Source: a virus
Reading direction: 5' to 3' (one strand)
Virus record (IMG/VR): IMGVR_UViG_3300045044_000110
DNA length: 64,000 bases
This document shows positions 625 to 64,000 of the stretch, in pieces; positions within the stretch are counted from its first letter, which is position 1, and each line of letters starts with the position of its first letter. The notes beneath the pieces were generated by a model that did no database searches, was not told where the DNA came from, and saw only the letters and a program-made list of their open reading frames with translations. Made by a program: the position numbers and the translations under genes.

Positions 625-628
625 TGAA

Positions 629-2119
629 TTAAGCAGGCGCACAGAGGATGTCGCACTGGGATTTTTGATCGGGACTTCCATTCCAGCTTGAACCCTCTGG
701 GTAGAAACGGACTACGCGATAACCTAGTTCGGCAACCACGTCCCGGACCTCATCGATTGAATGGCCCTGGCGCTGCAAAGCTTCTGGATTCTGCTCAAAC
801 CAGATTATGGGCCTGCTCTGTTTAATGATCTCCCGCGCCCCGCGCAAGACCTCCGGTTCGCAGCCTTCCACGTCGATCTTAAAGAATGAGACATCGCCTT
901 TGGGTTCAACCACACTATCCAGAGTCACCCGTTCACAGCTGCTCATCGGCCACTGCAGCTTTGGATCGATCAGCCGCGAGCCACCAACGACATCCGGCTC
1001 ATGAAAGAGATGCACCTTGCCGGGAGCCTCGCCCAGAGCCACTGGGTAACAACGCGCCTGGGGACAGTTCCTAGAAAGACAGAGGTACTGGATCGGGTGA
1101 GGTTCAAAAGCGTAGACAGTACCTTGTTCTCCTACGGCATTGAGGTAGAAGATAGTGTGGTCACCGATGGCCGCGCCCGCATCAATCACCGTTGAGCCGG
1201 GCCGGATATAGGGCCTTAGCTGCTGGAGCACAGTCTGATCATGATCCAGGCGCTGGGTTTGTTCGACCCACCGGCTGAGATGGGTATCGCGTCTCAAGAC
1301 CCACCAGCCTTGCGCTGTCTGCATAATTTGATCCTCCGGAGTCGGATTCTCCTTGCCTATCAGGTACAAATTGTCCAGCTCTCTAATCCGCTCTGTGCTC
1401 CACTGGCTCCAGCTATGATACTGACGGTAGCGTTGCCGCCAGGGCGGAGTCGGGCCACGGACATCGCAGAAGGCGTATTGATCGGGCTCATGCAGGGCAG
1501 CATAGAAGCCGATTACGTTGTGCTCACAGAATTTGAAAGGATGAGAGCCAAAGGTTGCTGGTGAATAAGGCGTAGCGCTGTACAGGCTATCCTTTAGGCC
1601 CTGTCCGGTCCTGGATGTAATCAACCGCCGCACATTGGCGAGCGTGCTCGCCCGGTAAAGAAAGGGAAAGCGCTGCATGTGGTCCGCATGCGGTTCAACT
1701 CCTAACCAGTAACGCATGATCGGCCCCCACTTGAGCTGCGGGACGCTGGGATTCGGCGCAGTGTCATAACGATCAAACCAGATAATCGGTTTTCCATCGA
1801 TCATATGGTCGCTAGCCTGCATAGGCTCAATGAGCATCGTGTCACTGTCCCAAATGGCGAAGAGATCAGCGTCAGAGAAGTTATCACATAACAAGGTCAG
1901 ATATGTTTGGAACGCGTTTCCATCCGGCCAGGGCTCGAAGTAGAAATAACGCACACTGGAGGGGAAACCCCAGGTCTTGATCACTGACTGGCAGTTTGCA
2001 TCGGCCAAGACGATAAAATTCGACTCAGGTTCTTTCCAGTTTTTGACTAAGAACTTGAGCGCATAGCTGATCCAGCAGAGGTCGCCCCACCAAGTCTTAA
2101 CGACAACGTCGGTCCTCAT
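629..2119 (-). CDS. Fusion: N-terminal glycosyltransferase-like domain + C-terminal FkbM-family SAM methyltransferase
   Basis: N-terminal LFAIWDSDTML (DxD). C-terminal FkbM hallmarks VIDAGAAIGDHT, VYAFEPHP, FFKIDVEGCEPEVLRGA. Confidence 0.85.
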   Translation of the reverse strand: MRTDVVVKTWWGDLCWISYALKFLVKNWKEPESNFIVLADANCQSVIKTWGFPSSVRYFYFEPWPDGNAFQTYLTLLCDNFSDADLFAIWDSDTMLIEPMQASDHMIDGKPIIWFDRYDTAPNPSVPQLKWGPIMRYWLGVEPHADHMQRFPFLYRASTLANVRRLITSRTGQGLKDSLYSATPYSPATFGSHPFKFCEHNVIGFYAALHEPDQYAFCDVRGPTPPWRQRYRQYHSWSQWSTERIRELDNLYLIGKENPTPEDQIMQTAQGWWVLRRDTHLSRWVEQTQRLDHDQTVLQQLRPYIRPGSTVIDAGAAIGDHTIFYLNAVGEQGTVYAFEPHPIQYLCLSRNCPQARCYPVALGEAPGKVHLFHEPDVVGGSRLIDPKLQWPMSSCERVTLDSVVEPKGDVSFFKIDVEGCEPEVLRGAREIIKQSRPIIWFEQNPEALQRQGHSIDEVRDVVAELGYRVVRFYPEGSSWNGSPDQKSQCDILCAPA

Positions 2120-2124
2120 AAAAG

Positions 2125-3540
2125 TCAGTAGGCATGGGTGGGCCTGGAGTGTTCGGGCATAAAGGCCATGTTGCCGATATGGCCGCAGATCAGCTGAGTA
2201 TCTAGCCAGATCGGGATGCTGCAGGCTCGAGCCCGTTTACAGAAAGCTTCGTCTTCCCCTTCATCGCCCTCGGGCTGGAAGTAGCGCCAGGGCAGGAACT
2301 CGGCCTGGGGAGCCAGCTCTGGGAACCGGCGCTGGAGTTCGAGGAACACATCCCGGTGCACCAGCGAGCAGCCGAACCCGACCCAGTCGACTTCCACAAG
2401 TCCGCGAGCGGTTCCTTTGCGAATATCATTACAGAGGAGCCTGTCCTCGTGGCTTCGGGGCCGGATCTCGGGCTGTATCACCAACTGCCCCATGAACCGG
2501 CGCGAAGTATACACACCACCCACAATGGCCTTGCCGCTACCGAGCAGCTTTTCCAGCACATCGTAGCGGCAGGCCTCATCGGGTATCACCTGGGAGCCAG
2601 TAATCCAGCGGAACCATTCCGGGTTGGCGATGGGCGGGACAATGTCGGAGTCCAACCAGAGGCTCCACAGAGCGCCGCTTTGCAAGAACCGATGAGCCAG
2701 CATGTTGCGGCTGCGGTGGATCACCGTGTCAGACTGGATATCAAATCCCAGCTCATATTTCTTAGCCAGGTACAGGCAGACCCACATGAAAGGCAGCGTG
2801 GGCTGGCCCAGGATAGGCGCACAGACCACGGCATTCATCTTGCCCCGGTTCGGCAGGCTCTGGATGGCTTGGCCGTTGTCGTGGCTAGCGAGGTGGGGTT
2901 CGAGCTGTTCAGCCAGCTCGACCTGGACTCCAGGCTTGCGGTGCAGCAGCTTCGTCAGCGCCTCCAGCGGAATCCGGCTCGGGTTAATCCCCCACTGATG
3001 CAGGGTCTGCTCCGTGCGGTCGAAGAACTTCTGGGCTTCCCCGCTCTTCTCGCCGCCCAGCTCGTGAATGTAATTTAGTACCTCCAGGACTAGATCGATC
3101 TTCTTCTTGGGTGCGCCCTCCGGTTTCAATTCCCCGTTAGTGCCGGGGGCCGTAGCGGGTGGCTGGGGCGGAGCTTGCGGCGTCTGGGCCACAGGCTGGG
3201 TGCCAGCCAGAGGGTTAGTCTTGCTCTCGACAAAGGTACCGATAGTCGTCCGGCCTGCTCCGGTTGGCGGCACCATTGCCACCTGTGGCGGAGGCGGACC
3301 GCCGGGTTGCTGCGGCGGCACAACCTGTATCTGCGGTGCTATCGGCTGGCCCCGGCCTACTACCTGAGAAACAAATTCGCCTTCCTTAACCGGGCTGCCC
3401 TGCGGAATCTGGCCCTGCTGGTTAGGTGGAACTCCGCTACCTGGGTAGTACAAGTCCTGGTCTTTAGCGGGCGGCGGCGCTGCACCACCTTTCCCGCCGT
3501 AGCGGGCTTCGAAGCTGGTTGCGTCAACGGTGATCGGCAT
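2125..3540 (-). CDS. GT2-like glycosyltransferase with long Pro/Gln-rich N-terminal extension
   Basis: HRSRNMLAHRFL, LWLDSDIV (DxD), VDWVGFGCSLVHRDVF and GEDEAFCKRA...IWLDTQLICGHIG are typical of phage GT2-like proteins. Confidence 0.85.
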   Translation of the reverse strand: MPITVDATSFEARYGGKGGAAPPPAKDQDLYYPGSGVPPNQQGQIPQGSPVKEGEFVSQVVGRGQPIAPQIQVVPPQQPGGPPPPQVAMVPPTGAGRTTIGTFVESKTNPLAGTQPVAQTPQAPPQPPATAPGTNGELKPEGAPKKKIDLVLEVLNYIHELGGEKSGEAQKFFDRTEQTLHQWGINPSRIPLEALTKLLHRKPGVQVELAEQLEPHLASHDNGQAIQSLPNRGKMNAVVCAPILGQPTLPFMWVCLYLAKKYELGFDIQSDTVIHRSRNMLAHRFLQSGALWSLWLDSDIVPPIANPEWFRWITGSQVIPDEACRYDVLEKLLGSGKAIVGGVYTSRRFMGQLVIQPEIRPRSHEDRLLCNDIRKGTARGLVEVDWVGFGCSLVHRDVFLELQRRFPELAPQAEFLPWRYFQPEGDEGEDEAFCKRARACSIPIWLDTQLICGHIGNMAFMPEHSRPTHAY

Positions 3541-49493: not shown

Positions 49494-52400
49494 TTATCCT
49501 GGTGCCGCCGGGGCCATCATGGGTTCAGAGGGATGCCGTTTAGCGGAGGGGGCTGGTACGTTCTCGGGGCGTTTATAAGCTTTGAGCATTGGCCGATAAT
49601 CGCGGTCTTCGGCATCCTGGGCTCGTTCCCAATTTCGGCCCTGCCAGTGTTTCTGCTCAGCAAACCAGAGGATGGCTTGCAGCGAGGAGGGTTTGATTCC
49701 TATCTGTTCAGCTGCTTTACGGAAGGCCAGCTGGGAAAGTCCGAAGTCGACATTGTTAACGCCAGGCTCGGCAGATGGTTGGATTAGCCAAGGCTGGCCT
49801 CCAGTGCGGCCTTCATAGCCCAGCCGCCGCATGGTGCGAGCGGCCCACATATCGATGGTGGCCTGGAGCGACCGGCCATTCAGGTTCCCGGCAAAGTTCG
49901 GCGTCTTAGGTCCACCTGCCTCTTCTTCCCAGGTGTGAGCAAGCACTTTCAGGACGGCGATAGAGTTGTGACCGAAGAGTTTACCTTCGGCATTTTTTGG
50001 GGTGATACCGTGATGGGCGATGTACTGTTCCATTGCCTTCTCATCGGTATCAGGAGCTTCCTCCTTCAGGGCTTCATGGATCTTGTTGTCCATGATGTGC
50101 TTGATCAGATTACCTTTGCCGCTCTGCTTAATGTCGTAGGCCTGGCGGTACAGATCGATGGCCCTGTCGTAGTTGCCGAGCATGTATTGGTGATAAGCAT
50201 TGATGGCCATATTGTAGTTGATCTTGACCTTGTTGCCCGCGCTGGTCGCGGCCAGCAGGTTGGCCAGCAGGTTCGAATGAGCGCCGAATTGATTCTCCAA
50301 AAGCCCCTTGGCCTCATCGTACCATTCCTTACCCGCCATGACTTCCGGCAGATGTTCAATGGATTTGTAATATTTGACCAGCTCGTCGGCGTAGGTGTTA
50401 ACAGCGCTGATGTCGTTTAGATGGGACACCCGCAGCCGGTCTGTAGGGGTGAGGTAGGGAATCAATCGTTTCTCTGGGTCCAGGCTTTCGAGATCGTCCA
50501 CGGTTTCCTTGGGCGCTTTAGCCATGGAGGTCATTAAGCCGGTCCTCGTATTCATTGCGTAGCCTAAAGCCTTGCCCTGTTGCTGGAGCAGCGGAGCGTT
50601 GGCGATATCGTAGTTGACCTTCTTGTAGAGCGGGCCGCCTTTCTCGTCCTTCCTGAATTTACCCTTGTCGTCGTAAGCAGGCTCGAGCGGAATCGCTTCC
50701 GGGATCTGAGTGTCCAGGCGCTCACCTACTCGTTGGTAGAGACGTTCTTGTTTGGGATCGTCCGGCCTGGGGCCGAGCCTGGCTTCGACCTCTGGCGAAA
50801 GTGCTCGGTCCAGTTTCCTGATGCCTTTAAGCTTGGCAGCTCCCGGCATGAAGGCCGGTCCGACCGACTCCCAGCCTGGTTTAGCCCACTCTGGCAGCTC
50901 TTTCTCTGGTGGCGCTTTCCACTTTGCCCATTCTGGCACTGCGCCTGCCCGTTCTGCTTCTTCTGGAACCGGGAAGTATTTCTCTGTCCCTTGCATCTCT
51001 CGTTCCAGCGCATTTCGTGGTTCAGTTTGCCACCGAGCTTCCTCGGTCGCTCGTTGTCCGGCCACTCGTGCTTCCAATTCTCCGGGAGAACGCTGGTAAA
51101 GTGCCATAGCCATGGCCTTGAGCCGTTTGTCGATCCAGTCCCGGCGTGAAAGCGCCTGAGTATCCAGGTGGTCGATGTACTGCTGGTTAAGCTCTTTGGC
51201 TGGCACCGGTTTACCCGCCGCTAATTTCGCTTTGTAATCGAACTCTTCACGGGTGTCGTTAGGGTAACGTTCGGCGGCTATTTTGCGTAGCTCATCTTGC
51301 ACTGCCGGATTGCCCTTGAGATCTTGATACGTGGCAGCGGTACTGGTCCCACTAGGATGGCCTTCGATATACTGCGCGGCGTGCTGGATTTCGTGTGCAA
51401 GAGTATCCCGGTCCTGGGCATTCTTTAGTGTGATTGTGTCCCCTCTTTCCTTGCCCTCCTCATCAGTATAAGGGTGCAGATAGAATCCATCGGCTCTGAT
51501 GTCGGGATTGAGCCGGATCTTGGTTTTGCGCAGCTGCGGGTAATTCTTGAATAGCTCCGGGTGGGTGATCGCTTCACTAAGCTTCATCGGCTCGCCCCAG
51601 CTCTCAAAGTGGCGGTGCTCCAACAGATTCGGATGAAGCGAGCCTTCTGGCGCAGGCTTAAACTTCATGTCCTGGTCAGAGATCTCGAAGCGTCTACCGC
51701 CTTGCGGACTCTCGAAAGTGCGACCTTCCTCTTGTGCTTGCTGAAAACCTTTGGCCTTCTTGCCCGCCATGGGCATGAAGGCCGGTGCTTCTAGAGTTCG
51801 CCCAGGTGCCTCGCCTGCTCCAAGGCCAGATGGGCCTCTTTGTCGTTGAGCTTCCTCTTCTGCACGCGCTCCACCCACTCGATAAGTTCCCGCTCTTTGG
51901 GCGTAAGCTCTGCTCTCTTCTTTAGCTCGGTCCCAGTCTGAGTCCTGGTAGTAGTTGCTCGCTCGTTCATTGGGTAGTTCCGGTGCTTGGCGGGTAGCTC
52001 TGGCTATAGCGCCTTCACGCCCACCTTCAGGATAACCATTCCAGCCCATAAAGACAACATCCGGTTCATCGTCCTTTTCGAAATCCCAAGTGGACTTCGC
52101 ATAGGCCCGGTTGAATTTCATGCGGCCCGTCTCATTGAATCCGAATTGCCGGTAATAGGCTGGTAAGAAGTGATCGTAAGCATCCAGGGTCCGGCCCCCA
52201 TTGGCGATGGCATGAGTTACAGCGTGGGCACCAGCTCCTTGCGGGCCGCCATTGTTAAAGACATTTTGGATATCGCCATGCGGATCGATGGCGACTCCGG
52301 TCGTGCCCTCTTGGTTGGTGTAGAGCTGATGGTGTCGGATATCCTCTGGGTTCAGTTCCGATAGGTATTGAGGCCGCTTTGATTTGTTGCGCTGAGTAAT

Positions 52401-55400
52401 GAATTCCTCGGGGCTAACAGATTTGAACTGTGGTCTGCCGCCTGGCATGAAGCTGACACTCATCGGCACATCAGGCCGACCGTGCGGGCTGGTGCGTTCC
52501 ATGACCTCGGCGAGGCCTTTGAACTCTTCCCCTGGCCGGATCCCTTCCGGCATATGCTCTGGGCTCGGGTGAAGCTCATGGATCAGCCCGGCTCTGAAGG
52601 AGCGGATCGTGGGCTCTAAAATCTCGTTGCTCCACAGCTTCCCTTTGAGTCCTTCCCTGTGACGCTCGTCAATGGCCCGGCGAATGGGGTTAGTTTCGCC
52701 TTCAGGTGTGAGTAGGGTGCCACCTTCCCGAGCCAGCTCCCGCAGCGCCTGCCCCTTCTTGGCTCTGGCGGCGGTGTTATTGATGACGGCATTTAGGAAA
52801 TCGGCCTCATGGCGTTTGAGCCGGTAAGCTACATGGTTTGGATCCACCTGGACCGGGTACTCCTTAGTCGATGCCTGGATGGCGTCTCCGGTGCCTTTAT
52901 ACCCGTGGTTGAGATTGTCGACATAGCCCTCCAGATCGTTGCGGAACTTGGTATTGATCGTGGGATAGGGCGTAGCTTTGCCCATGGCGGCCAGCTCCCT
53001 GTTGATCAGGTAGTGGTTGTTAGCCGCTGCATTCATGCTGACGCCCTGGATATAGCCCTGATGCTGCTCCCCTTGTTTAGAGGCTAGCTTTGCGCCTACT
53101 GCAGTCGGGATAAAGGTATGCCCGGCTAACTGAGCCGTGGTCTTCCCAAGCATCCTGGCTTCGGGGCTTGAAGCCTCGTACTCGATCTGCCGGGTCTTGG
53201 TGGTGGGCGGCTGCTCACCTTCGCGTGGAGCGCTTGCATAGGTGATATGCATCGGCTGCCGGTTAGCAATGGCCTGCTCGCCTGCTCTGAGCATTTGTTG
53301 CTGTTTAGGCGACATGTTGCCCAGCACATGTTCATGGAGTGCATCACCCGGCTGGAAGTATTCACCTTTGAACAGGCCGTCAGCTCCTTTGTGGACTCGG
53401 GCGTCATCAGGCGATAGCGATGCCGCATGCTCTTTCATGGCCTGATCGAGCCCGGCAACGGTGCCCTTGGCCAGATGCGGTGCGACCCTGGCATTAGCCG
53501 CTCCAGGATTATTAATCGTGGTGGGCTGCTCTTCTTCCTCGGTCTCGGTCGGGACGCCGCCGATTCGTTTCGGGCCCCGGCCCCGGCCAGCGGGCATGAA
53601 AGCTGGACCGGGCGCTTCCGGCGGACCCTGGAAATAGCCCATCTGCATGGCCGTCTGCGGACTGGGCATCATGAAAGGAGAAAAGCCTGTCTCTACTACT
53701 CCGGGAGACGTCGGTGCCGGTCCGGGAGCTGCCGGTGCCCGCTGCTGTGCTTCTGCCTCAAAACGTTGCAGTTCTTCTTCAGATACGCCGCCCCCAGGAG
53801 CTGCCTGTGGCTCTTCCTGGGCTTCGTACTGCGGAGCGCCGGGCCCACCATATTCAGCTCCTGGACCGAGGCCGCCGGGAGCACCGGGAGCACCACTAGG
53901 AGCGCCCTCTCTCCTACGTGCTAATGGGCCGCCGCCGCCTTCCTCAATTTCGTGGCCGGTGGGCGCATAAACGACCTGGCCGGTCTTTTTATCGACGATC
54001 TCAAAATTGACTGCGCCCTTAAAATTCGGAGCGAAGCCCAGGTCTTGCCTGGTTTTCCACTGCATGTCGATCAGCGCACCAGTTGATCGGCCAGGACCCA
54101 AGTCTTTGAGCGGAGCCTCGGCTGAAGCCCCGGTCCCCGGGTTATGGATTCGGATGATGTAGTTGCTATTGAAGAACTTTCCGTAGTCCTTTTGGCCGTG
54201 GTACCCAACATGCCGGAGAACGCTCGGCGGCAGGGCTGCTCCTGGATTATTTTCGCCGGAAATATCGTCATCCCAAGCCCCTCGATTCCAGCCCGGCTCG
54301 CTGTAGCCACCCCGTTCGGGGTTATCTATCTCGCCGTATTCGCTCCCCACCACCCCCACAAGTTTGTGACCGGTTTGTGGACTCTGGTGTTCCTGGGGCT
54401 GGCTCTGGACCTGGGTTTGTTGCTGGCGTTGGTCGCGGGCCGGATGAACAACTGGAACAGAAGGTTGAGTCTTGACAGTAGAACCTGTTTCGCCGCCCGG
54501 CATCAGTGCTGCCTTAGGTCCTGGCTTTGGAGGTTCGCCTTCGCTGATGGACTGCGCTGCACCTGGCGAATAACCTTGGCCTTTGAGCTGCTCCTGCGCT
54601 GCATGCGCTTCGGGCGAATCAGGCGCATGCTTCATCTCTGGTGCTGGTGGTGCACCGCCGCCGGAAGGTACTACTTTGCCCGTGATTACCCCGGCTCCCG
54701 GAACAACCCGTTGTTTCCCAGACGGAACCGGTGCCGGAGTCGGCTTTGGCGGCTCCCAGATTGGTGCGCCTTTGAGATCAGTTTCTGCTTTTAGCCAGTC
54801 AGTAAGCTCATCGCCGGGTTCGCCTGTAGTCTGTCGGCGCTGGTAATTTTCATAAGCACGTGCGCGAATATCCTCGTCACTAACTCCACCTGGTCGGTTC
54901 CGGGTAGCAGCCTCCCTGAGGCGTTGCTCCTGGAACCCTTTCTCCATTTCTGGCGGCAATTGAATTGCACCTTCCGGTGCCATCTTGGTGGCAGCAAACT
55001 CGCCTCGGGCCCAACGGCGCAGGTAGGGATCGCCCACATAGCCAAAGAGCATATGTTTTGGGACCGTAATTGGCCCATTGACATCACCGGTAGTGGTCGG
55101 CAGTCCGAGGCCTTCTAATGATTTACCAAGGTAAAGCTGGAATTGCCGCAGAAGACTTGGATCTTGAGTCCATTTGTGAGCGTCTTGCCCTTTGAATAAC
55201 TGACCCAGGGTATCAGCCGCAAACTCTTCCTGTGCTAACTCTTTGGTCAATCCGCTCCGCTTATATAAGTCTGCTTTGCCTTGGTTAAACTGCGGATTGC
55301 CTGGGGTGATTTCGGCTGTCGTTGGCAGATCGCCAAAGCCCATCTTGCCTAAAGTGTTATCGGCCTGATGGGCATAGCTATCTACGAAGTTATCTAGCTC

Positions 55401-58178
55401 ACCGGCCCGAGTGTGCATCACGAGGTAGTTAAGCCTGGCCTGGTCGTTTGGATGTAAGACTCGATAGGGAATATGGCCGGTTAACTCGTGGGCGGCGGCC
55501 TTATCAAAATCCTCGGCGCTGACGTAAGTCCTGAACTTGCCGATTGTTGGATCCCATTCGCTTACGAACCCGGCTGGGCTAACCTCGTGGCCCAGACTCC
55601 TGGCTATATCCTGTACTGTCGCTCGCGGCAAGAGATAGGACTGACTGTAGGGCTCAGCAAAGCCTTGCCACCATCTCCAGGCATTTTGATGACTGGGGTT
55701 CAACCCGTTAAATGCCGTCACCATCGGGTTATCGAATTGGTCCCCGTAAGTCTTTAATTGCCACGGAGGAGGCTTATCGGGGTTTTCGCCTTTACCAACC
55801 CAGGTAAAATCAAAGGCCGTACCTCGGAGTCCATTCCATATGTTCGGGAGGGCATGAATGGTAGCATTTGCTAGCCCGGTCTTGTTAACCGTGTCGAGGA
55901 AATCGTTGGCGTCTTTGCTCGTAATAGCGGCATAAGGAATGCCTGCGCTCATTCCGCGCACATAGCTTTCGAGAGAACGGCCTCCGACTTGGACAGCGAG
56001 CTGATTAAAAGGATTACCGCCTACTGCCGCCCGGAAAGGAATCACAGGTGCCTGAAGCGGTTTTGGCCCCAAGACTTGATCCAGCCAAGGCCAGCGAATT
56101 TCTGTTCCTGGGATGGTGCGCGCCTCTGTGCCTACGCCGGTAGCGATGGCGCGTCCTTCCAATAGGGGTATAAAAGCGCTCGGGTTGGCAGCCCTCGAGA
56201 CATTGCCCCATAGCTTGAATGTTTTGCCGATTCCTTTTAGGCCCGCGCCACCCAAAACGCCAAGGGCAGATGTGGCTCCGGCATCCTCGGCAAGAGCAAG
56301 CCAAGCATCTCGGGCCGTCGCTGGGTTAGTCAGTTTTGATTTATCGACTCTGGGGTCAAGAGCAAAAGCAAGACCGGTCCCAACTCCAGCGCCTCCGAAC
56401 CCGCTTAATACTCTCTTCTTCAGTGTAGGGAAGGTCTTCGATAATATTGCGCTGCCAACATCATCGGTCACATCACCAAGCCGCCATAAGACGCCGCCAG
56501 TTCGCGAGATAATGGGCAATAAAAGCCGGTCAGCTAACAATGCGCCTGGCGCATCCAGGCCGCCTGCCATGACAATGGCGTCGCCCAAGGTTTTAAACAC
56601 CTCGCCAGTTCCCACCATGGCTCCCGGTTTAGGCATCATCCCAGCCGCTGTTAACTCCTTGCGCTGAGCTTCCGGGATATTAACTGTGTATTTGTCGACC
56701 TGCTGGTTGTAGTTCGTGCGGGCTTGATTCAACCTAGCGTCCTGCTGAGCGCGAGTTATCAGGTAGGAATTCTGCCCAGCTCCAGTTGCAACGTCTTCCG
56801 CTTGGGGCATCCCCTTGAGCGCTGCCGCAACTACTGGCACTTTACTGACAAGCCAGTTCCAAAGGTTCTCCGCGCCTGCGCCGACTTCTATCTGGGCTTG
56901 GGCCGCACGCTTCTGCATATACACCGGCACGGCCTTATTCATTATATCCAGGATTTGTTTCTGGACACCGGCCTGAGTTTCTTCCTCAGGTTGTCCGGCA
57001 AACGCAGGCGCTAACGGAAGGTTTGCTCCTTTAGTCGCTAGCTCCTGAGCATGGACTAACTGAGACCTCGCCGTATTATAGGCATCATCAGACATGGCCC
57101 CGGACTGATGCTGTCGGTCAAGCCAGCCCATTGCATCGAGGATCGGAGTTTTCTGCAATCCACCGGCATAGGCCATGGCCTGGAGCTGCTGTTGTCCGGG
57201 CGTCTCCGGTGGACGCAGCATTTCGGCTGCCTGGGCTTTTTCTTGTTCCGCTCGGGCCTGCGCTTGTGCCGTTTCTAGGTCTTGGAGCAGGCCGCCGGGG
57301 ACCGTACCGGGCGGCAATTCTTTAGCAGTTTCTGCGGTCCACGGAATGTTGCCTCCGGTGTATTGGCCAGCTTCTGCGAGTGCTTCCCATTCTGCTTGAT
57401 TCTGCGGGGTTACCCCGGTCGGCAACTTGACGCGGTCAGCCGGGAGTACGTCGCCCGCCTTATGGACATCCTGAAGATCTTGCTTTTTTTTCTGGTCCTC
57501 GGCTAGGGCGTCATCTTCAGCTTTGCGCATTGCCGCCTGCGTCTCAGAATCCGCATTATCATACTGATTCTGAAGATGGTCTTTGGCTGCTTGCGCCGTG
57601 TCGAAGGTAATTTGCCCGCTGCCATAGGCCTTAGTCAGGCCTGCTGGCGTTTTGTAAGTATTAAGCGCGTCATTGACTAGGTCATCTGGATTAACGGTGT
57701 GTTCATCCGGGATGACGTCGCTCTTATAAACATTCTCCGGCAGAACGTCCTGACCGGGCTTAGCTATGGTCGGTGGCGGACGAGGTGTAGGCTTCGCTAT
57801 AGTCGGCGGCGGCGGCGTGACTGCTGGTGCAGCCGGAGCCTGACTTGCTGTATCGCTCTGGGGAGTGGGAGTGACGGGTCCTCCCTCCTGGAACCCGAAC
57901 ATGGGGGCGCTGGCTCGTAATCCTTCCCAGAGATTCCTTTGCTCAGGAGAAACCGGAGCTTGATAGGGAACGTCCCAGGTTGGGTTGATGAATCGTGGTT
58001 CTTGAGCACGTCGCCAGGTTCCTCGCGTGTGATCGTAGTACCATCCATATGGAGGATTGGTATATTCCGGTATTGGAACAGGGGCAGGCGGCGGCGGCGG
58101 TCGCGGAGTAGGAGCAGGTTGTGGCTTAGCCTCGTGATCGTCTGTGACCGGGCCACCTGTTTGGAAAGGCCGATCCAT
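49494..58178 (-). CDS. Giant polyvalent internal-virion/ejection protein (2894 aa)
   Basis: HELTGH...EEFAAD; DUF2934-like IRARAYENY...DWLKAE; RlpA/DPBB-like DLGPG...LIDM; GNAT-like LDAYD..LP.YY..FGF...PDVVFM; LPD23-like RRFEISD + HEIQH...GELEAR; C-terminal HhH-glycosylase-like GPKT..F..NL...TIDMW...LQAILW. Confidence 0.8.
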   Translation of the reverse strand: MDRPFQTGGPVTDDHEAKPQPAPTPRPPPPPAPVPIPEYTNPPYGWYYDHTRGTWRRAQEPRFINPTWDVPYQAPVSPEQRNLWEGLRASAPMFGFQEGGPVTPTPQSDTASQAPAAPAVTPPPPTIAKPTPRPPPTIAKPGQDVLPENVYKSDVIPDEHTVNPDDLVNDALNTYKTPAGLTKAYGSGQITFDTAQAAKDHLQNQYDNADSETQAAMRKAEDDALAEDQKKKQDLQDVHKAGDVLPADRVKLPTGVTPQNQAEWEALAEAGQYTGGNIPWTAETAKELPPGTVPGGLLQDLETAQAQARAEQEKAQAAEMLRPPETPGQQQLQAMAYAGGLQKTPILDAMGWLDRQHQSGAMSDDAYNTARSQLVHAQELATKGANLPLAPAFAGQPEEETQAGVQKQILDIMNKAVPVYMQKRAAQAQIEVGAGAENLWNWLVSKVPVVAAALKGMPQAEDVATGAGQNSYLITRAQQDARLNQARTNYNQQVDKYTVNIPEAQRKELTAAGMMPKPGAMVGTGEVFKTLGDAIVMAGGLDAPGALLADRLLLPIISRTGGVLWRLGDVTDDVGSAILSKTFPTLKKRVLSGFGGAGVGTGLAFALDPRVDKSKLTNPATARDAWLALAEDAGATSALGVLGGAGLKGIGKTFKLWGNVSRAANPSAFIPLLEGRAIATGVGTEARTIPGTEIRWPWLDQVLGPKPLQAPVIPFRAAVGGNPFNQLAVQVGGRSLESYVRGMSAGIPYAAITSKDANDFLDTVNKTGLANATIHALPNIWNGLRGTAFDFTWVGKGENPDKPPPWQLKTYGDQFDNPMVTAFNGLNPSHQNAWRWWQGFAEPYSQSYLLPRATVQDIARSLGHEVSPAGFVSEWDPTIGKFRTYVSAEDFDKAAAHELTGHIPYRVLHPNDQARLNYLVMHTRAGELDNFVDSYAHQADNTLGKMGFGDLPTTAEITPGNPQFNQGKADLYKRSGLTKELAQEEFAADTLGQLFKGQDAHKWTQDPSLLRQFQLYLGKSLEGLGLPTTTGDVNGPITVPKHMLFGYVGDPYLRRWARGEFAATKMAPEGAIQLPPEMEKGFQEQRLREAATRNRPGGVSDEDIRARAYENYQRRQTTGEPGDELTDWLKAETDLKGAPIWEPPKPTPAPVPSGKQRVVPGAGVITGKVVPSGGGAPPAPEMKHAPDSPEAHAAQEQLKGQGYSPGAAQSISEGEPPKPGPKAALMPGGETGSTVKTQPSVPVVHPARDQRQQQTQVQSQPQEHQSPQTGHKLVGVVGSEYGEIDNPERGGYSEPGWNRGAWDDDISGENNPGAALPPSVLRHVGYHGQKDYGKFFNSNYIIRIHNPGTGASAEAPLKDLGPGRSTGALIDMQWKTRQDLGFAPNFKGAVNFEIVDKKTGQVVYAPTGHEIEEGGGGPLARRREGAPSGAPGAPGGLGPGAEYGGPGAPQYEAQEEPQAAPGGGVSEEELQRFEAEAQQRAPAAPGPAPTSPGVVETGFSPFMMPSPQTAMQMGYFQGPPEAPGPAFMPAGRGRGPKRIGGVPTETEEEEQPTTINNPGAANARVAPHLAKGTVAGLDQAMKEHAASLSPDDARVHKGADGLFKGEYFQPGDALHEHVLGNMSPKQQQMLRAGEQAIANRQPMHITYASAPREGEQPPTTKTRQIEYEASSPEARMLGKTTAQLAGHTFIPTAVGAKLASKQGEQHQGYIQGVSMNAAANNHYLINRELAAMGKATPYPTINTKFRNDLEGYVDNLNHGYKGTGDAIQASTKEYPVQVDPNHVAYRLKRHEADFLNAVINNTAARAKKGQALRELAREGGTLLTPEGETNPIRRAIDERHREGLKGKLWSNEILEPTIRSFRAGLIHELHPSPEHMPEGIRPGEEFKGLAEVMERTSPHGRPDVPMSVSFMPGGRPQFKSVSPEEFITQRNKSKRPQYLSELNPEDIRHHQLYTNQEGTTGVAIDPHGDIQNVFNNGGPQGAGAHAVTHAIANGGRTLDAYDHFLPAYYRQFGFNETGRMKFNRAYAKSTWDFEKDDEPDVVFMGWNGYPEGGREGAIARATRQAPELPNERASNYYQDSDWDRAKEESRAYAQRAGTYRVGGARAEEEAQRQRGPSGLGAGEAPGRTLEAPAFMPMAGKKAKGFQQAQEEGRTFESPQGGRRFEISDQDMKFKPAPEGSLHPNLLEHRHFESWGEPMKLSEAITHPELFKNYPQLRKTKIRLNPDIRADGFYLHPYTDEEGKERGDTITLKNAQDRDTLAHEIQHAAQYIEGHPSGTSTAATYQDLKGNPAVQDELRKIAAERYPNDTREEFDYKAKLAAGKPVPAKELNQQYIDHLDTQALSRRDWIDKRLKAMAMALYQRSPGELEARVAGQRATEEARWQTEPRNALEREMQGTEKYFPVPEEAERAGAVPEWAKWKAPPEKELPEWAKPGWESVGPAFMPGAAKLKGIRKLDRALSPEVEARLGPRPDDPKQERLYQRVGERLDTQIPEAIPLEPAYDDKGKFRKDEKGGPLYKKVNYDIANAPLLQQQGKALGYAMNTRTGLMTSMAKAPKETVDDLESLDPEKRLIPYLTPTDRLRVSHLNDISAVNTYADELVKYYKSIEHLPEVMAGKEWYDEAKGLLENQFGAHSNLLANLLAATSAGNKVKINYNMAINAYHQYMLGNYDRAIDLYRQAYDIKQSGKGNLIKHIMDNKIHEALKEEAPDTDEKAMEQYIAHHGITPKNAEGKLFGHNSIAVLKVLAHTWEEEAGGPKTPNFAGNLNGRSLQATIDMWAARTMRRLGYEGRTGGQPWLIQPSAEPGVNNVDFGLSQLAFRKAAEQIGIKPSSLQAILWFAEQKHWQGRNWERAQDAEDRDYRPMLKAYKRPENVPAPSAKRHPSEPMMAPAAPG

Positions 58179-58182
58179 AAGC

Positions 58183-60612
58183 TCATTTCAGCACACGTAT
58201 TTGACCCGTCCCATCGATGACTTTTTTGCCGCTTTGGCCTTCGATGGCCTTCATCATCTGGTCATGGGTCATTCCGCGCACATCGATGTCAAAGTCTTTA
58301 GCTGGGGTGGCACTGAGGCGCGGCGTCGCAGTCGGACTTACGTTCGGGGTGACTGTCGCATAGGGTGTCCGCTTAGCTCCGTCGATGGCTTCGATACTTA
58401 AGCCGGTATCAGGAACACGCCCGGTATTGCGGATGGAAGTCGCGATATCCTTCCATTCGGGCTTGAGCCGCTCATTGTTCATCAGCGCCGCACCGATATA
58501 GCGATTTAGCAGCGCGGCCATATTGTGGTTGTAGTCGCTTAGGCTATTCGGCAACCGGGAATCCATATGTACTCCGTCGAGCATGGAGCGCTCGTCACCA
58601 GTCAAGCCGGACATTCGTCCTTCATCATGCATGATGTTCCAAGCATCCAGTAACCGCGTTTGGGCGGCGTTCGGTTTATCGCCGCCAGCAATTACGTTTG
58701 CCATGGCCCGGCCAGCCTGCTCGCCGAAAGGCAAACCGGAAAACTGATAGGCGTTAGCCCGCACTTCATTCTTCCATAGATTAACCCAACTCCAATTAGC
58801 CGGGTTGGTGCCGAGGCCTGGATCTTGAACCGCATCCATGGCGCGTTGCGATTGCAATACCTGGTTCTTGATGGCTTCCAGCTTCTCAAGAGTGGATTGC
58901 GCGACCGGTCCATGGGTGTCGAGCCAGAGTCTATTCTGCAACGCGTCCACCATCTGGTTACGAGTCATATTGGTCGGGTCCTGATGGAGGTACGTGTTCA
59001 CGTTCTGTCTGAGAACGCCGTCCGGCTTGAGTAGTTCATGGCTTGTTCCTCGACCATCGCTATACGTAACGTCCCAGGACCAAGGGGTCTCGTTATTGAT
59101 CAAGAATGGCACATGGCTATTACCTGGCCGCATATCCCGGAACCAGGTGATAGATCCTCCTGCTCCATCTTGCTTTTGTGCTGCCACCTTGAGGTCGCCT
59201 GGTCCATTGGGCTGCTTGTCCCAGCCTTGAGCCTCGCGACTAGCTGATTGCTGGTTAATCTCATCGACTGTGCCTACGAGATTTACATCTGGCGGCGGCG
59301 GACTGTCGATACTTCTAGTGGAACGCTGGGAGTCGGGCAGGCCACTAGGGTTAGCTCCAACCTTATTCGAGGTGGCAATCCCCGGCTCATTACTGGCCAT
59401 GAGGTTCGCCGGGTTAGAGATCTGCTGAGCGACCATAGCCCGGATCTGAGCATTGGGGTCATTTGACGCGACTGCCGGAACCGGAGGAGCGGGAGCGCTT
59501 GCCGGGAATGGTATCTGATTGCCGAACGGTGACCAGACTGGGCCCTGAGTGTTCGGCTGGTTCTGCTGGTCAGCCGCGCTCATAGCCAGGCTCATGTTGT
59601 TACTCGTGATGAGGTGCGGTGCGGTTCTGGCGATTTGGGAGAGCGGGATTGTCGTCGAGCCACCGCCCTTGAGGTAGGCGGTGTAAGTAGGCTGGCCGCC
59701 TGGTCCGTTTCCAGGATTAAAAGCTACCCGGTCGACTCCGCTATCCCAATTTTCTTTAAGGTGTTCCTTAACCTTGTTTGCTGGGATGGGAGGCATGAGC
59801 CCGCTCTGTGGGCTGGCTTGCCACATGGCTAGCGCTTGTTGTTCTTCGGGTGAAACCGGTGGCACCTGGACTGGCTGCTGTTGCGGAGTTACCGGAGCTT
59901 GCGGCGCTTGAACCTGGCCACCCTCTTGGAAGCGTTGAACTACGGGGCCGCCTGCCGCAGCGTACTGGTATTGGTTAGCGCCCAATAAATCCTCCACACG
60001 TGCTATCCTTGAGTTTAGATCGTCGATGCTGATAGGCGCAGCGGGAGGACCGTAGCTCGAAGATTGTGGTATCGGCTTTGCTTGTGGGGGCGGTCCTGTT
60101 TCATCCCGTTGGGCAGCGGTAGAACTGGAAATCGCGGTCGTTTGATAATCTGAGTCTGAGCCTGGGCCTCCGACTGCCTGAACTGTCTTTTTGCCCTCAT
60201 CGGTCTGTTGATCGCCAGGCGCTGGTGGTGGTTTTTCTTGGTCTGTTACGCTCTTTGTTTTAGGCTGATCCTCTGGAGGCATCCCGACGGGATAGGTATA
60301 GCCAGGGACTTCCGCATAGCCGCCATGCCCGGCAGAGCCGTACCACTTGTAGAGTTGATGCTCCTTGGAGTACTGCAGAAAATCTTGTTCTAGACGGGCT
60401 CGCGCAGCTTCAGCGCGCTGTTGCTCTCTAACCGCCGGATTTAGCATCCCGGAGGTGATATCTTTCCCTGCCTCGCGAGCGGCTAGCCCAATGGTATTCA
60501 TGTAGTTGACCGCCTCTTTTGGTGACCACCCCTCCCATGGAACAGTACTCGGGTGTAACTGATAGTAGGCCATCAGGTTGCCAAATTGGGTCTCGGATCC
60601 AGGTCCAGCCAT
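58183..60612 (-). CDS. Putative internal-virion/ejection protein (809 aa)
   Basis: P/Q/A-rich, GGxV motifs, sits between two other large virion-type genes. Confidence 0.6.
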   Translation of the reverse strand: MAGPGSETQFGNLMAYYQLHPSTVPWEGWSPKEAVNYMNTIGLAAREAGKDITSGMLNPAVREQQRAEAARARLEQDFLQYSKEHQLYKWYGSAGHGGYAEVPGYTYPVGMPPEDQPKTKSVTDQEKPPPAPGDQQTDEGKKTVQAVGGPGSDSDYQTTAISSSTAAQRDETGPPPQAKPIPQSSSYGPPAAPISIDDLNSRIARVEDLLGANQYQYAAAGGPVVQRFQEGGQVQAPQAPVTPQQQPVQVPPVSPEEQQALAMWQASPQSGLMPPIPANKVKEHLKENWDSGVDRVAFNPGNGPGGQPTYTAYLKGGGSTTIPLSQIARTAPHLITSNNMSLAMSAADQQNQPNTQGPVWSPFGNQIPFPASAPAPPVPAVASNDPNAQIRAMVAQQISNPANLMASNEPGIATSNKVGANPSGLPDSQRSTRSIDSPPPPDVNLVGTVDEINQQSASREAQGWDKQPNGPGDLKVAAQKQDGAGGSITWFRDMRPGNSHVPFLINNETPWSWDVTYSDGRGTSHELLKPDGVLRQNVNTYLHQDPTNMTRNQMVDALQNRLWLDTHGPVAQSTLEKLEAIKNQVLQSQRAMDAVQDPGLGTNPANWSWVNLWKNEVRANAYQFSGLPFGEQAGRAMANVIAGGDKPNAAQTRLLDAWNIMHDEGRMSGLTGDERSMLDGVHMDSRLPNSLSDYNHNMAALLNRYIGAALMNNERLKPEWKDIATSIRNTGRVPDTGLSIEAIDGAKRTPYATVTPNVSPTATPRLSATPAKDFDIDVRGMTHDQMMKAIEGQSGKKVIDGTGQIRVLK

Positions 60613-60628
60613 AAGTCAGATTCCTTTT

Positions 60629-62473
60629 CTAAACGATTTGGTAGCGCCCTAAGGGTTGTTCATATTGGGCATAATCCCTTTGCTCCTGGCTTTCATAACC
60701 ATATGGGTTAGCCCAGTTCCCGGTAGCCTGCTGATGCCAAGATAGCTGGGCATCTCTGTTGAAAGCCTGGGCGATGGCTTGGCCAATTGCTCCGATTCCG
60801 CCCGCGATCCCCATGGCTGCCTGATTGCCCCCAGCTTGTGCCGCTGGGTATTGGGTAGCCTGGCTCCCCGTAGCCAGGATCGGGCCGCTCATGCCGGTTC
60901 CCGGCGAAGGCCCGACCACGTATTGGCCTGGGTAAACGGTTGATCCAGCTGGCCAGTAGCCGCCAGCACCGGGAGCCGTACCCGTTTGGGAGGCTTGATA
61001 AGGCGAGGTGGGCGCTGCCGGTGCCTGGGGTCCGACCTGCAAGCGGTTGGGGTTACCGTAGTAGACGCCGCCGGGCCCTACCTGCTGCTGCTGGCCTATC
61101 TGTCTGGGGACGCCGAAATTGTTGGCCAGGTAAGGATTCCCCTGGCTGGTGTTGGGCACCCAGCCGCTCTGCGGGGCAGCACCGGTTTGAGCGGCGGCGT
61201 TTGCAGCGGCAGGCGTTCGGGGTGTCTCCGCAGTAGGAGCCGTTCGAGTGACGTTGGTCTTAGGGTATTGCTGGACCAGCCTATTGTAATCCTGCTGAGC
61301 CTTCATCACGAGCGGATTGCCAGCCATAGCCGGACTGCCTGCTGTCGCCATTTGGGTCAGGATCGTTCTTTCTCCTTCGGGTAATTGGTTCAAAGCCCAG
61401 GCAGCGGCTGGATCGGATGGATCGACTGTGCCACCATCTGCCATATGCGCTGGGTAAAGCCCATCGCCAAGCTTGCTGGCTTTTTTCTTTTTATCCGTCC
61501 GGTTGAGTTGATCTAGCTTGTCGCGTCCGATCTTTTGGGCTGCATCCTTGTTAATCACATATTCGCCGGGAGTCAGCATGGCCGGGACCGTGTCGGTATC
61601 ATTCTCATTAACCTTCCCGCCGGATTGCATTTGTTTGAACCCAGCTTGCTGCAGGGCGATAGCTCCGGTGCTCGTACCCGGCGTCGTAGGATTGTTCACA
61701 TAATTAACTTCCGGCAGTACCCCCAGGCCTCGCGGTCCCGTTGGGGTAGGAGGAGGCACCGGCGCAGCTGGCGGTATCCCGGCAATAGGAGCGCCCGGAG
61801 TAATATTGGGCGGGATCTGGACACTGGGCGCAGCCGGAGGCCTGGCGATAGGCCGCCCAGACATGAACGGTCCTTGGGGCCTGGCCCCGAATGGGGTAAT
61901 AGGCTGGATTGCACCCTGACTAGGCGGCGGCACGGTTGCCTGGCCACCCATGAGTCCAGGCACATTCTGCCACGGCCCAGCTGGCACGGGTGGCACCCCG
62001 GTCGAAATCATCGGCATCTGCGGCCCTGAAAAAACGCCACCCTGGGGATTGATGGGCTGCTGGGCGGGATTAGGGTTAACGATCATCGGCTGGTTCAAAG
62101 CCGCCGCGCCCAGCTGGGACAAGCCGTAGAGGGGGTTACCGACAATCGCGTTGTTGAAGGGGTTCGGGACATTGGAGCCGCCGCCGCCACCCTGGGCGAG
62201 GCCGATGAGATTGAGCGCCTGGGATAATTGGGCTTGGGCTGCGTTTGGTCCCAAGCTTGTGTTCCCGCCACCGGGGCTGCTTTGCGTAACCTGCCCGCTG
62301 CCTCCCGTCTGTGGCACATAGGCGTTAAATGGGACGCCGGGGTTCACCTGCTGGATAAAACTTCCTACCTGGTCCAGCGGGATACCCTGTTGCTGGAGTG
62401 CGTTGGATGTCGAGGAACCGAAGATGCGGGAGACATCATCCCAGCTGTTAAGGGTAGGCCAATTATCAGCCAT
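60629..62473 (-). CDS. Putative internal-virion/ejection protein (614 aa)
   Basis: P/Q/G-rich; DTVPAMLTPGEYVINKDAAQKIG..L..LN motif known from phage virion proteins; ATG 62473 overlaps the TfuA stop by 8 nt. Confidence 0.65.
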   Translation of the reverse strand: MADNWPTLNSWDDVSRIFGSSTSNALQQQGIPLDQVGSFIQQVNPGVPFNAYVPQTGGSGQVTQSSPGGGNTSLGPNAAQAQLSQALNLIGLAQGGGGGSNVPNPFNNAIVGNPLYGLSQLGAAALNQPMIVNPNPAQQPINPQGGVFSGPQMPMISTGVPPVPAGPWQNVPGLMGGQATVPPPSQGAIQPITPFGARPQGPFMSGRPIARPPAAPSVQIPPNITPGAPIAGIPPAAPVPPPTPTGPRGLGVLPEVNYVNNPTTPGTSTGAIALQQAGFKQMQSGGKVNENDTDTVPAMLTPGEYVINKDAAQKIGRDKLDQLNRTDKKKKASKLGDGLYPAHMADGGTVDPSDPAAAWALNQLPEGERTILTQMATAGSPAMAGNPLVMKAQQDYNRLVQQYPKTNVTRTAPTAETPRTPAAANAAAQTGAAPQSGWVPNTSQGNPYLANNFGVPRQIGQQQQVGPGGVYYGNPNRLQVGPQAPAAPTSPYQASQTGTAPGAGGYWPAGSTVYPGQYVVGPSPGTGMSGPILATGSQATQYPAAQAGGNQAAMGIAGGIGAIGQAIAQAFNRDAQLSWHQQATGNWANPYGYESQEQRDYAQYEQPLGRYQIV

Positions 62474-63761
62474 TGTGCTCCTTTCCGGCTGCTGTGCGTT
62501 GGAGGGCCACACTCAGCTCGTTCAGATTCGAAAAGCCAGTTTCAAGCAGGTATTCTTCCGGGGTAATTTTCAGTTCCAGCCCTTCATTCTCCATGTGGCT
62601 GACCAGTCGCTGGAAAGCCGGGGTCTCAATATCGATGGAGATCCAGTCATCGTCTGTCAGCCGGGCTTCGTGTTGGGCCGCCTGGATTGCCCAGAAATCG
62701 AATCCTTGCTGGGTGCGCAGGTAATCCAGGATGGCCTGGGTGTTGCGCTTAAAACATTTGGTGACGGTTAGGTGGTGCTGCAGCTTGCGGATCCGGGCAT
62801 TCCGGATCATGAGCCGATTGTACTCAGGCCGGTGCCAGCCGTTGTTTTCTAAGAAGCATTCGAAGTCAGCCGGAGTTTCGATCTCGGCCCGGCGCTGGAA
62901 CCGGGCGTTCTCGGCTTCAATCTCCTCTAAGCTGACCTGGACCTTGAGCGCGTTACACAGCATGAGGGCCAGCTCCTGATTAGCCGAGTCCCAGCAGATC
63001 CGTTCCCACTCCGGGTTATGCAGCATGACATAGGCATCGAGGTGCTGCTGCGGTATTGGTATCCCATTGATGTCGATCCGGCGGTCACGCTCGTAGAGGG
63101 CCTGGAAGGTGAGCGACAGATGTTCTGGCAGCGGCTTGCACACCGGGTTGGGCTTATGCTCCCGGAATTCGCGTAAGGCTAGCTCGGCATCAATCTGTTT
63201 CTGGGGGATACAGGGGAAGCCCGTCTGGAGCGCCTCACTCTGCCAGGTGTTCTCGCATAGGTCGCGGGTCCGCCAGGTATAAGGAATCTGGCGCATGGCC
63301 TCCAGGAACCAGTCAGCGTTGCCGCCCAGTTCTTGGACTCCGGCTCGGATATCCACCAGGGGAACGGTGTTGAGGTGGAAGAGTCCGTTATGCTCTGCGT
63401 AGCTGACCGCGACCTCGCTGTCGTCCTCGGTGACGCCATCCCGGTACCATTCATAGATCTGGCCGATCCCGACCATGCCCAGGTAATCCAGCTCAGCCGC
63501 ACGCAGGGCCCCCATCGAGGCCGCGCCGTAGACTCCGGCTACACCGGGATACTGCAGGGCATAGACCAGCTCCTTGTGCCACACCGACAAATTCTCTCTG
63601 AATACCCCATCCAGGAGGATGATGTGAGTGGGTGAATACCGAGCCAGGTCACTCACAATGTCTGCCTGCCGGGCCGGTGGCCGGTAAATGGCATCGGGCA
63701 GGATCGCCTTGGCGTTTCCAAGAGGGAGGCTGGGCCCGAGATAGACTAAGACTTTTTCCAT
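62466..63761 (-). CDS. tfuA: TfuA-family protein (partner of thioamide-forming YcaO) with C-terminal helical extension
   Basis: VYLGPSL...RPPARQAD...ILLDGVF....SVWHKEL..AL...VYGAASMGALRAAEL..LGMVGIGQIYEWYRDG..EDDSEVAV...VPLVDIR is the full TfuA signature. Confidence 0.95.
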   Translation of the reverse strand: MEKVLVYLGPSLPLGNAKAILPDAIYRPPARQADIVSDLARYSPTHIILLDGVFRENLSVWHKELVYALQYPGVAGVYGAASMGALRAAELDYLGMVGIGQIYEWYRDGVTEDDSEVAVSYAEHNGLFHLNTVPLVDIRAGVQELGGNADWFLEAMRQIPYTWRTRDLCENTWQSEALQTGFPCIPQKQIDAELALREFREHKPNPVCKPLPEHLSLTFQALYERDRRIDINGIPIPQQHLDAYVMLHNPEWERICWDSANQELALMLCNALKVQVSLEEIEAENARFQRRAEIETPADFECFLENNGWHRPEYNRLMIRNARIRKLQHHLTVTKCFKRNTQAILDYLRTQQGFDFWAIQAAQHEARLTDDDWISIDIETPAFQRLVSHMENEGLELKITPEEYLLETGFSNLNELSVALQRTAAGKEHNG

Positions 63762-64000
63762 TCTTCGCCCTCCTCGTTGTCCTCCTCGGGTTCGGTGACC
63801 TTCTCCTTCCCCTGTCTAGCCAGCTCAGCCATCTTGCGCCGGGCATAAGAGAGGCAGCGCAGGCCTGGCTGCCAGAAATCGAACTTGAACGGCTCACATT
63901 GCGGGCTCATCACCCGGACCACATGTACGCTTTCCAGGTAAGAACCGATCTCTTTAACGTAGACCTCCGATACTCCTCGCGCTTTGATCTGGCGCAAGAG
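63746..64000 (-). CDS. ycaO: C-terminal end of a YcaO-family protein (truncated by window end)
   Basis: LLRQIKARGVSEVYVKEI...VHVVRVMSPQCE...PGLRC matches the YcaO C-terminal L..L...G...V...(D)L....VVRV..P.LE...G.R pattern; overlaps the TfuA start by 16 nt, the usual ycaO-tfuA order. Confidence 0.7.
   Translation of the reverse strand, partial: LLRQIKARGVSEVYVKEIGSYLESVHVVRVMSPQCEPFKFDFWQPGLRCLSYARRKMAELARQGKEKVTEPEEDNEEGEEWKKS

Follow-up and report, generated by a model that had tools for sequence, protein, structure and literature searches.

What does a bacteriophage do with the enzymes of protein thioamidation? To our knowledge, backbone thioamides in native proteins are confined to McrA and uL16, with a few peptide antibiotics besides. 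The question is raised by the end of a viral sequence of 64,000 nucleotides (nt), IMG/VR record IMGVR_UViG_3300045044_000110 (the whole stretch is called the window below), in which a gene for TfuA and the 3′ end of a gene for YcaO stand next to large virion-type genes. Here, we report that the pair is real, intact and phage-borne, that it lies inside a late virion-protein operon and that the family to which it belongs is large and monophyletic. The best explanation, to which we give a little less than an even chance, is that it would be a functional YcaO and long-TfuA thioamidation pair, acquired once by a clade of soil podophages with genomes of ~75–78 kb, inherited vertically since then and most likely acting on a virion protein.

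The tfuA gene (62466–63761, minus strand) encodes a protein of 431 amino acids (aa) that contains the strings WHKE, SMGALRAAEL and EDDSEVAV. The ycaO 3′ end (63746–64000, minus strand) comprises the final 84 codons and the stop, and this 84-aa fragment by itself has no family match. An exact-sequence look-up with TfuA returned six metagenome contigs, one of which, L001, is identical to the window base for base across 601 compared bases and reaches 10 kb further. On L001 the fragment is completed to a 424-aa protein (L001:8742–10016) annotated as PF02624 YcaO. A preliminary description of the window had taken the fragment for the C terminus of a YcaO upstream of tfuA and had noted that the genes overlap in a chain; both points hold, with overlaps of 16 nt between ycaO and tfuA (63746–63761) and of 8 nt between tfuA and the gene for a 614-aa virion-type protein, p614 (11289 versus 11296 on L001). 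The TfuA is complete, as had been stated on the strength of the open reading frame (ORF) and the quoted strings, but the description understated it: this TfuA is of a long form, in which a further domain of ~215 aa is present.

The full-length YcaO matches TIGR00702 at 164.6 bits (cut-off 75.65) over residues 24–376. Among families, the McrA-glycine thioamidation model TIGR03266 fits it best, at 175.1 bits and thus below the equivalog cut-off of 365, and its nearest solved structure is MJ1094 of M. jannaschii (6PE3), which is of the archaeal thioglycine type and aligns over nearly the full length (E 1.2e-30). Across 25 phage and cellular homologues the invariant positions are E78 and E81 (ExxE helix), E86, N165-G166 (SNG), E183, E186-R187-D188 (ExxERD), R274, E278, Q281, R283 and R291-D292-D293, and the conserved motifs align to MJ1094. 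We take the invariant residues to correspond to the published ATP-site residues of the E. coli enzyme. This pattern supports a YcaO that retains the conserved acidic and ATP-site positions and is probably a complete enzyme of the thioamide-forming type, rather than an ORF outside the family or one that has lost its catalytic residues. Outside the catalytic region, the C terminus is acidic (EPEEDNEEGEEWKKS). The acidic tail carries a conserved EEGE(E/S)WK (L001:9960–10016; window 63746–63800) in the 75-kb clade only, and is missing in remoter phage YcaOs and in cellular YcaOs.

The YcaO might instead carry out different ATP-dependent chemistry on amides (forming azolines or amidines, or binding and chaperoning only), or the pair might be a decaying passenger: both proteins score under their equivalog cut-offs, and one phage lineage has ycaO with no tfuA nearby. 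However, TfuA is known only from thioamidation and is co-inherited in nearly all lineages. The azoline-forming model TIGR03604 reaches 95.8 bits where its cut-off is 219.25, there is no E1-like or Ocin-ThiF partner and no dehydrogenase gene, and the protein has no C-terminal PxP or proline-rich tail. Conservation well above that of neighbouring genes, described below, argues against decay. We regard this explanation as very unlikely. Models of two further YcaO types also fall short: the uL16/S12-associated model NF040716 reaches 31.5 bits where its cut-off is 700, and the OsmC-fused family scores far under its cut-off.

The TfuA matches PF07812 at 106 bits (cut-off 30; E 1.4e-30) and, by sequence, the solved TfuA of M. 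acetivorans, 6XP8, at E 4e-25. Its AlphaFold2 model (predicted local distance difference test (pLDDT) 67.6) superposes on 6XP8 over ~215 residues (Foldseek E 1.1e-10, template modelling score 0.71 by target), which corresponds to an N-terminal TfuA fold at approximately residues 1–215 (63117–63761, minus strand). Against the equivalog NF033432 the protein scores 131.9 bits (cut-off 235.2), with profile positions 1–135 of 211 matched. The C-terminal domain (approximately residues 216–431; 62466–63116, minus strand) is helical, is rich in columns that are invariant among 15 phage homologues and finds no match in Pfam or the PDB. With no such match, a SurA-like chaperone was rejected as an identity for it. 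A phage invention is likewise ruled out, as cellular long TfuAs have the domain too and align with it at 22–34% identity; by our own ORF calls, 56 of 70 cellular TfuAs beside the nearest cellular YcaOs are 440–620 aa long. By these alignments, the long TfuA characterizes an entire cellular subfamily and is not specific to phages.

Does the pair belong to the phage at all? The window stops inside ycaO and the flank lies outside it, as might be expected of an assembly chimera or a prophage boundary at which host chromosome begins. However, the identical arrangement is present on six independent contigs from different samples, with phage structural genes flanking it on both sides, seven IMG/VR contigs are syntenic, and the genomes of 185,579 species hold no close copy of the YcaO (best 35% identical). 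The DNA beyond position 64000 is phage DNA with structural genes, not the host cluster for a ribosomally made, post-translationally altered peptide (RiPP) that the preliminary description had allowed for. Phage genes on both sides, together with the lack of a close cellular copy, refute the prophage-boundary and chimera alternative, and its probability is negligible.

The order of transcription on L001 and the window is p621, p609, p953, p571, p137, p530, YcaO, TfuA, p614, p809 and p2894, with genes that overlap or abut; those upstream of ycaO on L001 include further large structural-type genes. On the coding strand, promoter-like sites are absent from p571 on, and terminator-like sites are absent from p137 through p809. 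This layout is best explained by co-transcription of the pair with the late virion-protein genes, in an overlapping, co-directional late operon. The DNA comes from soil metagenomes. Exactly the same proteins occur on a contig of 77.9 kb. The pair is conserved on hundreds of contigs from soil metagenomes, of which many measure 72–80 kb; for at least 15 relatives the contig size is 74–80 kb, which is consistent with complete genomes.

How widespread and how old is the pair in phages? Word-indexed searches returned 251 YcaO relatives and 2,609 TfuA matches, the latter including cellular TfuAs, and the best 120 matches of each are 58–80% identical over the full length. The seven syntenic IMG/VR contigs have the same gene order, with identities of 62–73% for YcaO, 59–77% for TfuA, 61–79% for p530 and 71–79% for p609, compared with just 22–37% (full-length alignments) for p614, p809 and p2894. 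These values indicate that the pair is kept under strong constraint in a large and abundant clade of soil phages. In an exhaustive search of representatives, one or two entries stand for the whole clade, and ~15 more follow at 35–42% identity; the gene context was read for nine of these ~15, and every one is phage-like. A maximum-likelihood tree of 113 YcaOs unites all phage-context sequences in one clade (Shimodaira–Hasegawa-like approximate likelihood ratio test 99) and separates them from 89 rows that are mostly cellular (99), a topology that fits a single old acquisition and subsequent diversification in phages.

The nearest cellular YcaOs are 27–35% identical to the phage protein. Their cassettes are carried by Azospirillum, Dongiaceae, Actinomycetota, Chlamydiota, (filamentous) cyanobacteria, Gemmatimonadota and Acidobacteriota. 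These orphan bacterial cassettes resemble the phage pair in their two-gene layout, the homologous C-terminal TfuA domain and the absence of an adjacent precursor, and differ in being chromosomal and in having a YcaO of a separate clade. No conserved third gene stands beside them, and the one cyanobacterial locus that was read in detail holds no precursor. Given the long TfuA and the orphan layout that they share with the phages, the phage pair would derive from a widespread orphan bacterial cassette. Two individual contigs deserve description. Outside the phage YcaO clade, the sequence nearest to it in the tree is a YcaO on a 3.7-kb contig (L049) from a single-cell genome of Prochlorococcus; a gene for a 433-aa TfuA lies upstream of it, and the contig may be viral DNA in the single-cell assembly. 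A temperate phage (L198:1–21164) with integrase, ERF, PD-(D/E)XK and DNA methylase genes carries a YcaO of the phage clade, and the gene before its ycaO encodes a Pro/Thr-rich beta-helix protein with a signal-like N terminus.

The 50,697 GenBank phage records gave no DNA match and contained neither a TfuA nor a YcaO of this type; no isolated GenBank phage has the pair. A search of the full-text literature on YcaO, TfuA or thioamidation together with phages or viral genomes yielded no description, and phages go unmentioned in the papers on genome mining and biochemistry that are closest to the subject. The preliminary description knew of no phage example, and these searches agree with it.

What, then, is modified? 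One possibility is a small RiPP, matured from an unannotated short ORF of phage or host as in thioamitides and thiovarsolins. Short ORFs are easily missed, and the characterized bacterial TfuA-dependent YcaOs all target RiPP precursors (PMC8120280, PMC6511847). In thioviridamide and the other thioamitides, and in thiovarsolins, YcaO and TfuA install a thioamide, as proposed here for the phage pair (PMC8120280, PMC6511847). However, those clusters have a short precursor with tailoring and export genes, and the phage locus has no exporter, no protease and no other tailoring gene. From p609 to p809 there is no intergenic room for a precursor gene, and no Nif11, NHLP or other precursor family was found among 59 small proteins, in agreement with the preliminary description, which had seen no short precursor downstream. 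The cellular relatives, too, lack a conserved small neighbour. RiPP maturation accordingly ranks low, and we consider it improbable.

A full-length protein substrate has precedents of two kinds. The archaeal McrA YcaO–TfuA system (TIGR03266/NF033432; 6PE3, 6XP8) is the one that both phage proteins resemble in best family and nearest structure. It is a two-gene cassette, as in the phage, with a full-length protein in place of a leader–core peptide as substrate and with ThiS-type sulfur, which we presume for the phage pair as well. The phage pair differs in falling below the equivalog cut-offs, in having no mcrA or McrA, in the extra ~215-aa TfuA domain and in its setting in a virion operon. E. 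coli YcaO acts on ribosomal protein uL16, a folded cellular protein whose gene is not adjacent, although this enzyme is TfuA-independent and of another YcaO branch (PMC7550191, PMC13063428).

By analogy, the phage YcaO would spend ATP on the O-phosphorylation of one backbone amide in a substrate protein. TfuA would free sulfide from a ThiS/MoaD-type thiocarboxylate of the host, and the sulfide would substitute for the amide oxygen to give a thioamide. The substrate would be an internal or ejection-type virion protein of the phage itself, with p530 foremost. Thioamide-forming YcaOs outside sulfide-rich habitats work with a thiocarboxylated ThiS homologue and a TfuA hydrolase (PMC13063428). Pfam scans of the large proteins and the 59 small proteins, which covered all but ~4 kb of the genome, found no ThiS, MoaD, ThiF or NifS. 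With no carrier gene in the phage, the sulfur would have to come from a carrier of the host.

The leading candidate for a substrate or partner, on the evidence of gene order and alignment, is the membrane-anchored protein p530 (L001:7172–8764), which is encoded just past the window end and whose gene end overlaps ycaO by 23 nt. Its layout runs from a poly-Gly N terminus through a strongly conserved, G/Q/A/N-rich body (72% mean column identity) and a hydrophobic segment to a C-terminal domain with the sequence CWVAR. In the Atlas it resembles viral proteins, with the ejection-protein family P22_gp7 in one cluster of lower rank (score 0.86). A p530 homologue stands directly upstream of ycaO in nine of ten divergent YcaO-positive lineages with readable upstream sequence, namely the 75-kb clade, L028, L029, L030/31, L113, L114, L115, L196 and L197. 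The two genes overlap by 4–23 nt in these lineages except in L113, which has a 213-nt gap, and in L028 the overlap is kept even where inserted genes part tfuA from ycaO. Among p530 homologues in IMG/VR, ycaO adjoins in 14 of 14, and profile searches of IMG/VR for divergent p530 bodies found none. The best-conserved element of the body, R-x-[FY]-G-[LI]-x-G, is present in full or degenerate form in eight of nine homologues.

The C-terminal CWVAR domain has a much wider range than the p530 body. It occurs on at least 599 IMG/VR contigs, and among the best 80 loci YcaO and TfuA are present in four, all of this clade; the remaining 76 are YcaO-less phages whose bodies are not homologous to p530. 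There, a module of a transmembrane helix followed by CWVAR(E/S)VYG..W..FR.W..P..LR..Y is joined to non-homologous Q/A/N-rich bodies of 300–1000 aa (L116–L195; gp25 of Puniceispirillum phage HMO-2011). It has no Pfam match and is a C-terminal domain, as yet unnamed, that is widespread among the internal proteins of podophages. The gp25–gp22 module of HMO-2011 offers a comparison: gp25 has the transmembrane-plus-CWVAREVYG domain of p530 together with MxxGGxV, and large hypothetical internal proteins come next. It differs in having no YcaO or TfuA and in a gp25 body that is not homologous to the p530 body.

Before p530, YcaO-positive lineages that are readable there encode a conserved protein of 125–137 aa (p137; L001:6762–7175), which is comparable to T7 gp13 in size and position. 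Its AlphaFold2 model (pLDDT 84.5) gives just weak GNAT-like and thioredoxin-like fold matches (E > 0.01). A role as RiPP recognition element or sulfur carrier is not supported, as the fold matches are weak and the protein has no C-terminal GG.

On the other side of the pair, the preliminary description saw the gene chain run into three ejection-type proteins. Genes for proteins of 614, 809 and 2894 aa do lie there, whereas the ejection role finds no PDB match and no strong PHROG match; we infer it from size, order and composition. The first, p614 (60629–62473, minus strand), is the reading frame of a 614/627-aa ORF (60629–62512, minus strand), with weak tape-measure-like PHROG matches at residues 284–349 and two MxxGGxV motifs. 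The 809-aa virion-type protein p809 (58183–60612, minus strand), to which position and size suggest such a role, has no family or PDB match. The giant p2894 (49494–58178, minus strand), a virion-type protein of 2894 aa, has DUF7178 at its C terminus; PDB sequence searches with p2894, p809 and p609 gave nothing.

A motif, [FYM]xxGGxV or, more broadly, [FYM]xxGGx[VI], recurs in p614, in p809 and at the N terminus of p2894 (window 61424–61630, 59911–59964 and 57873–58166), as well as in their divergent (22–37% identical) homologues (L032:7102–9222), often with acidic residues after it. A YcaO-specific recognition site was considered and ruled out, since HMO-2011, which has neither YcaO nor TfuA, carries the motif twice in gp25 ('MAKGGMIRKMQTGGSV'). 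The motif is hence general to such internal proteins and lends no support to a YcaO site; in ejection proteins it may serve as a signal for packaging, cleavage or docking.

Several points weigh against thioamidation of a virion protein. The chemistry is assumed from family resemblance, with both proteins under the cut-offs of the McrA-system equivalogs. The adjacency of p530 and ycaO may be explained by shared ancestry and a conserved order of the structural module alone; vertical inheritance of a syntenic module predicts the same pattern equally well, which is why p530 is no more than the leading candidate. The R-x-[FY]-G-[LI]-x-G element is missing in L196, a lineage with both YcaO and TfuA. 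In the temperate lineage L198/L199, ycaO follows an unrelated beta-helix protein and tfuA is absent in 21 kb. Finally, metatranscriptome contigs from three soil runs of different studies cover p614, p809 and p2894 and none covers tfuA or ycaO, with thin coverage. These short contigs are 100% identical to parts of the three genes (window 56586–62423), and so the phage, or its DNA, occurs in soil RNA libraries; on expression they are uninformative, because coverage is too thin and carry-over of DNA is possible. Separately, YcaO modelled together with residues 330–450 of p530, ATP and Mg scored 0.00, with a partner pLDDT of ~32, which weighs on neither side of the question of binding.

The variable gene context bears on a further explanation, in which the pair thioamidates a host protein (of translation, the envelope or defence), either late in infection or after delivery into the next cell with the ejection proteins. 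In L197, a counter-example to a fixed virion context, genes for a beta-helix protein and a protein of 98 aa stand between ycaO and the gene for a short TfuA, and together with L198/L199 this keeps a host target in play. The cellular relatives are stand-alone YcaO and long-TfuA cassettes with no conserved third neighbour, and probably target a housekeeping protein, like E. coli YcaO on uL16 (PMC13063428); the phage copy could have retained such a target, and its site among ejection-type genes would allow packaging. However, the phage YcaOs form their own long-diverged clade, at most 35% identical to cellular ones, a late operon is atypical for host take-over genes, and neither a capsid-targeting signal nor a host target was identified. 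We judge a host target to be unlikely.

Weighing these points, we hold it nearly an even question, with the balance slightly on the negative side, whether a phage virion protein is the substrate. Within that estimate, p530 specifically is a tentative choice. The most explicit version of the preferred reading, in which the phage targets one of its own internal or ejection proteins for thioamidation, most likely p530 and perhaps at R-x-[FY]-G-[LI]-x-G, is correspondingly doubtful.

Elsewhere, the window encodes a large terminase (TerL), RecT and a superfamily 2 helicase, and also a collagen-repeat tail fibre, a beta-helix protein and a podophage GP4-type fibre protein. Its other end (1–3540, minus strand) has glycosyltransferase-like genes together with a gene for a fusion protein whose C-terminal part is an FkbM methyltransferase domain. 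These lie ~5 kb downstream of the terminase, beyond two large genes to which no identity was assigned, and form a second toolkit for protein or glycan modification in the same late region.

A phage pair under such constraint implies a use of thioamides in viruses that has not been described, be it a sulfur-modified virion component or a new alteration of the host. If a virion protein is indeed the target, it would be the first to bear a thioamide and a further full-length YcaO substrate beside McrA and uL16, and the thioamide might protect an envelope-crossing protein from proteases or tune its refolding. The pair also offers a compact, precursor-free system for studying how TfuA-dependent YcaOs recognize protein substrates, and could show the role of the conserved C-terminal TfuA domain that is common to thousands of orphan bacterial cassettes.

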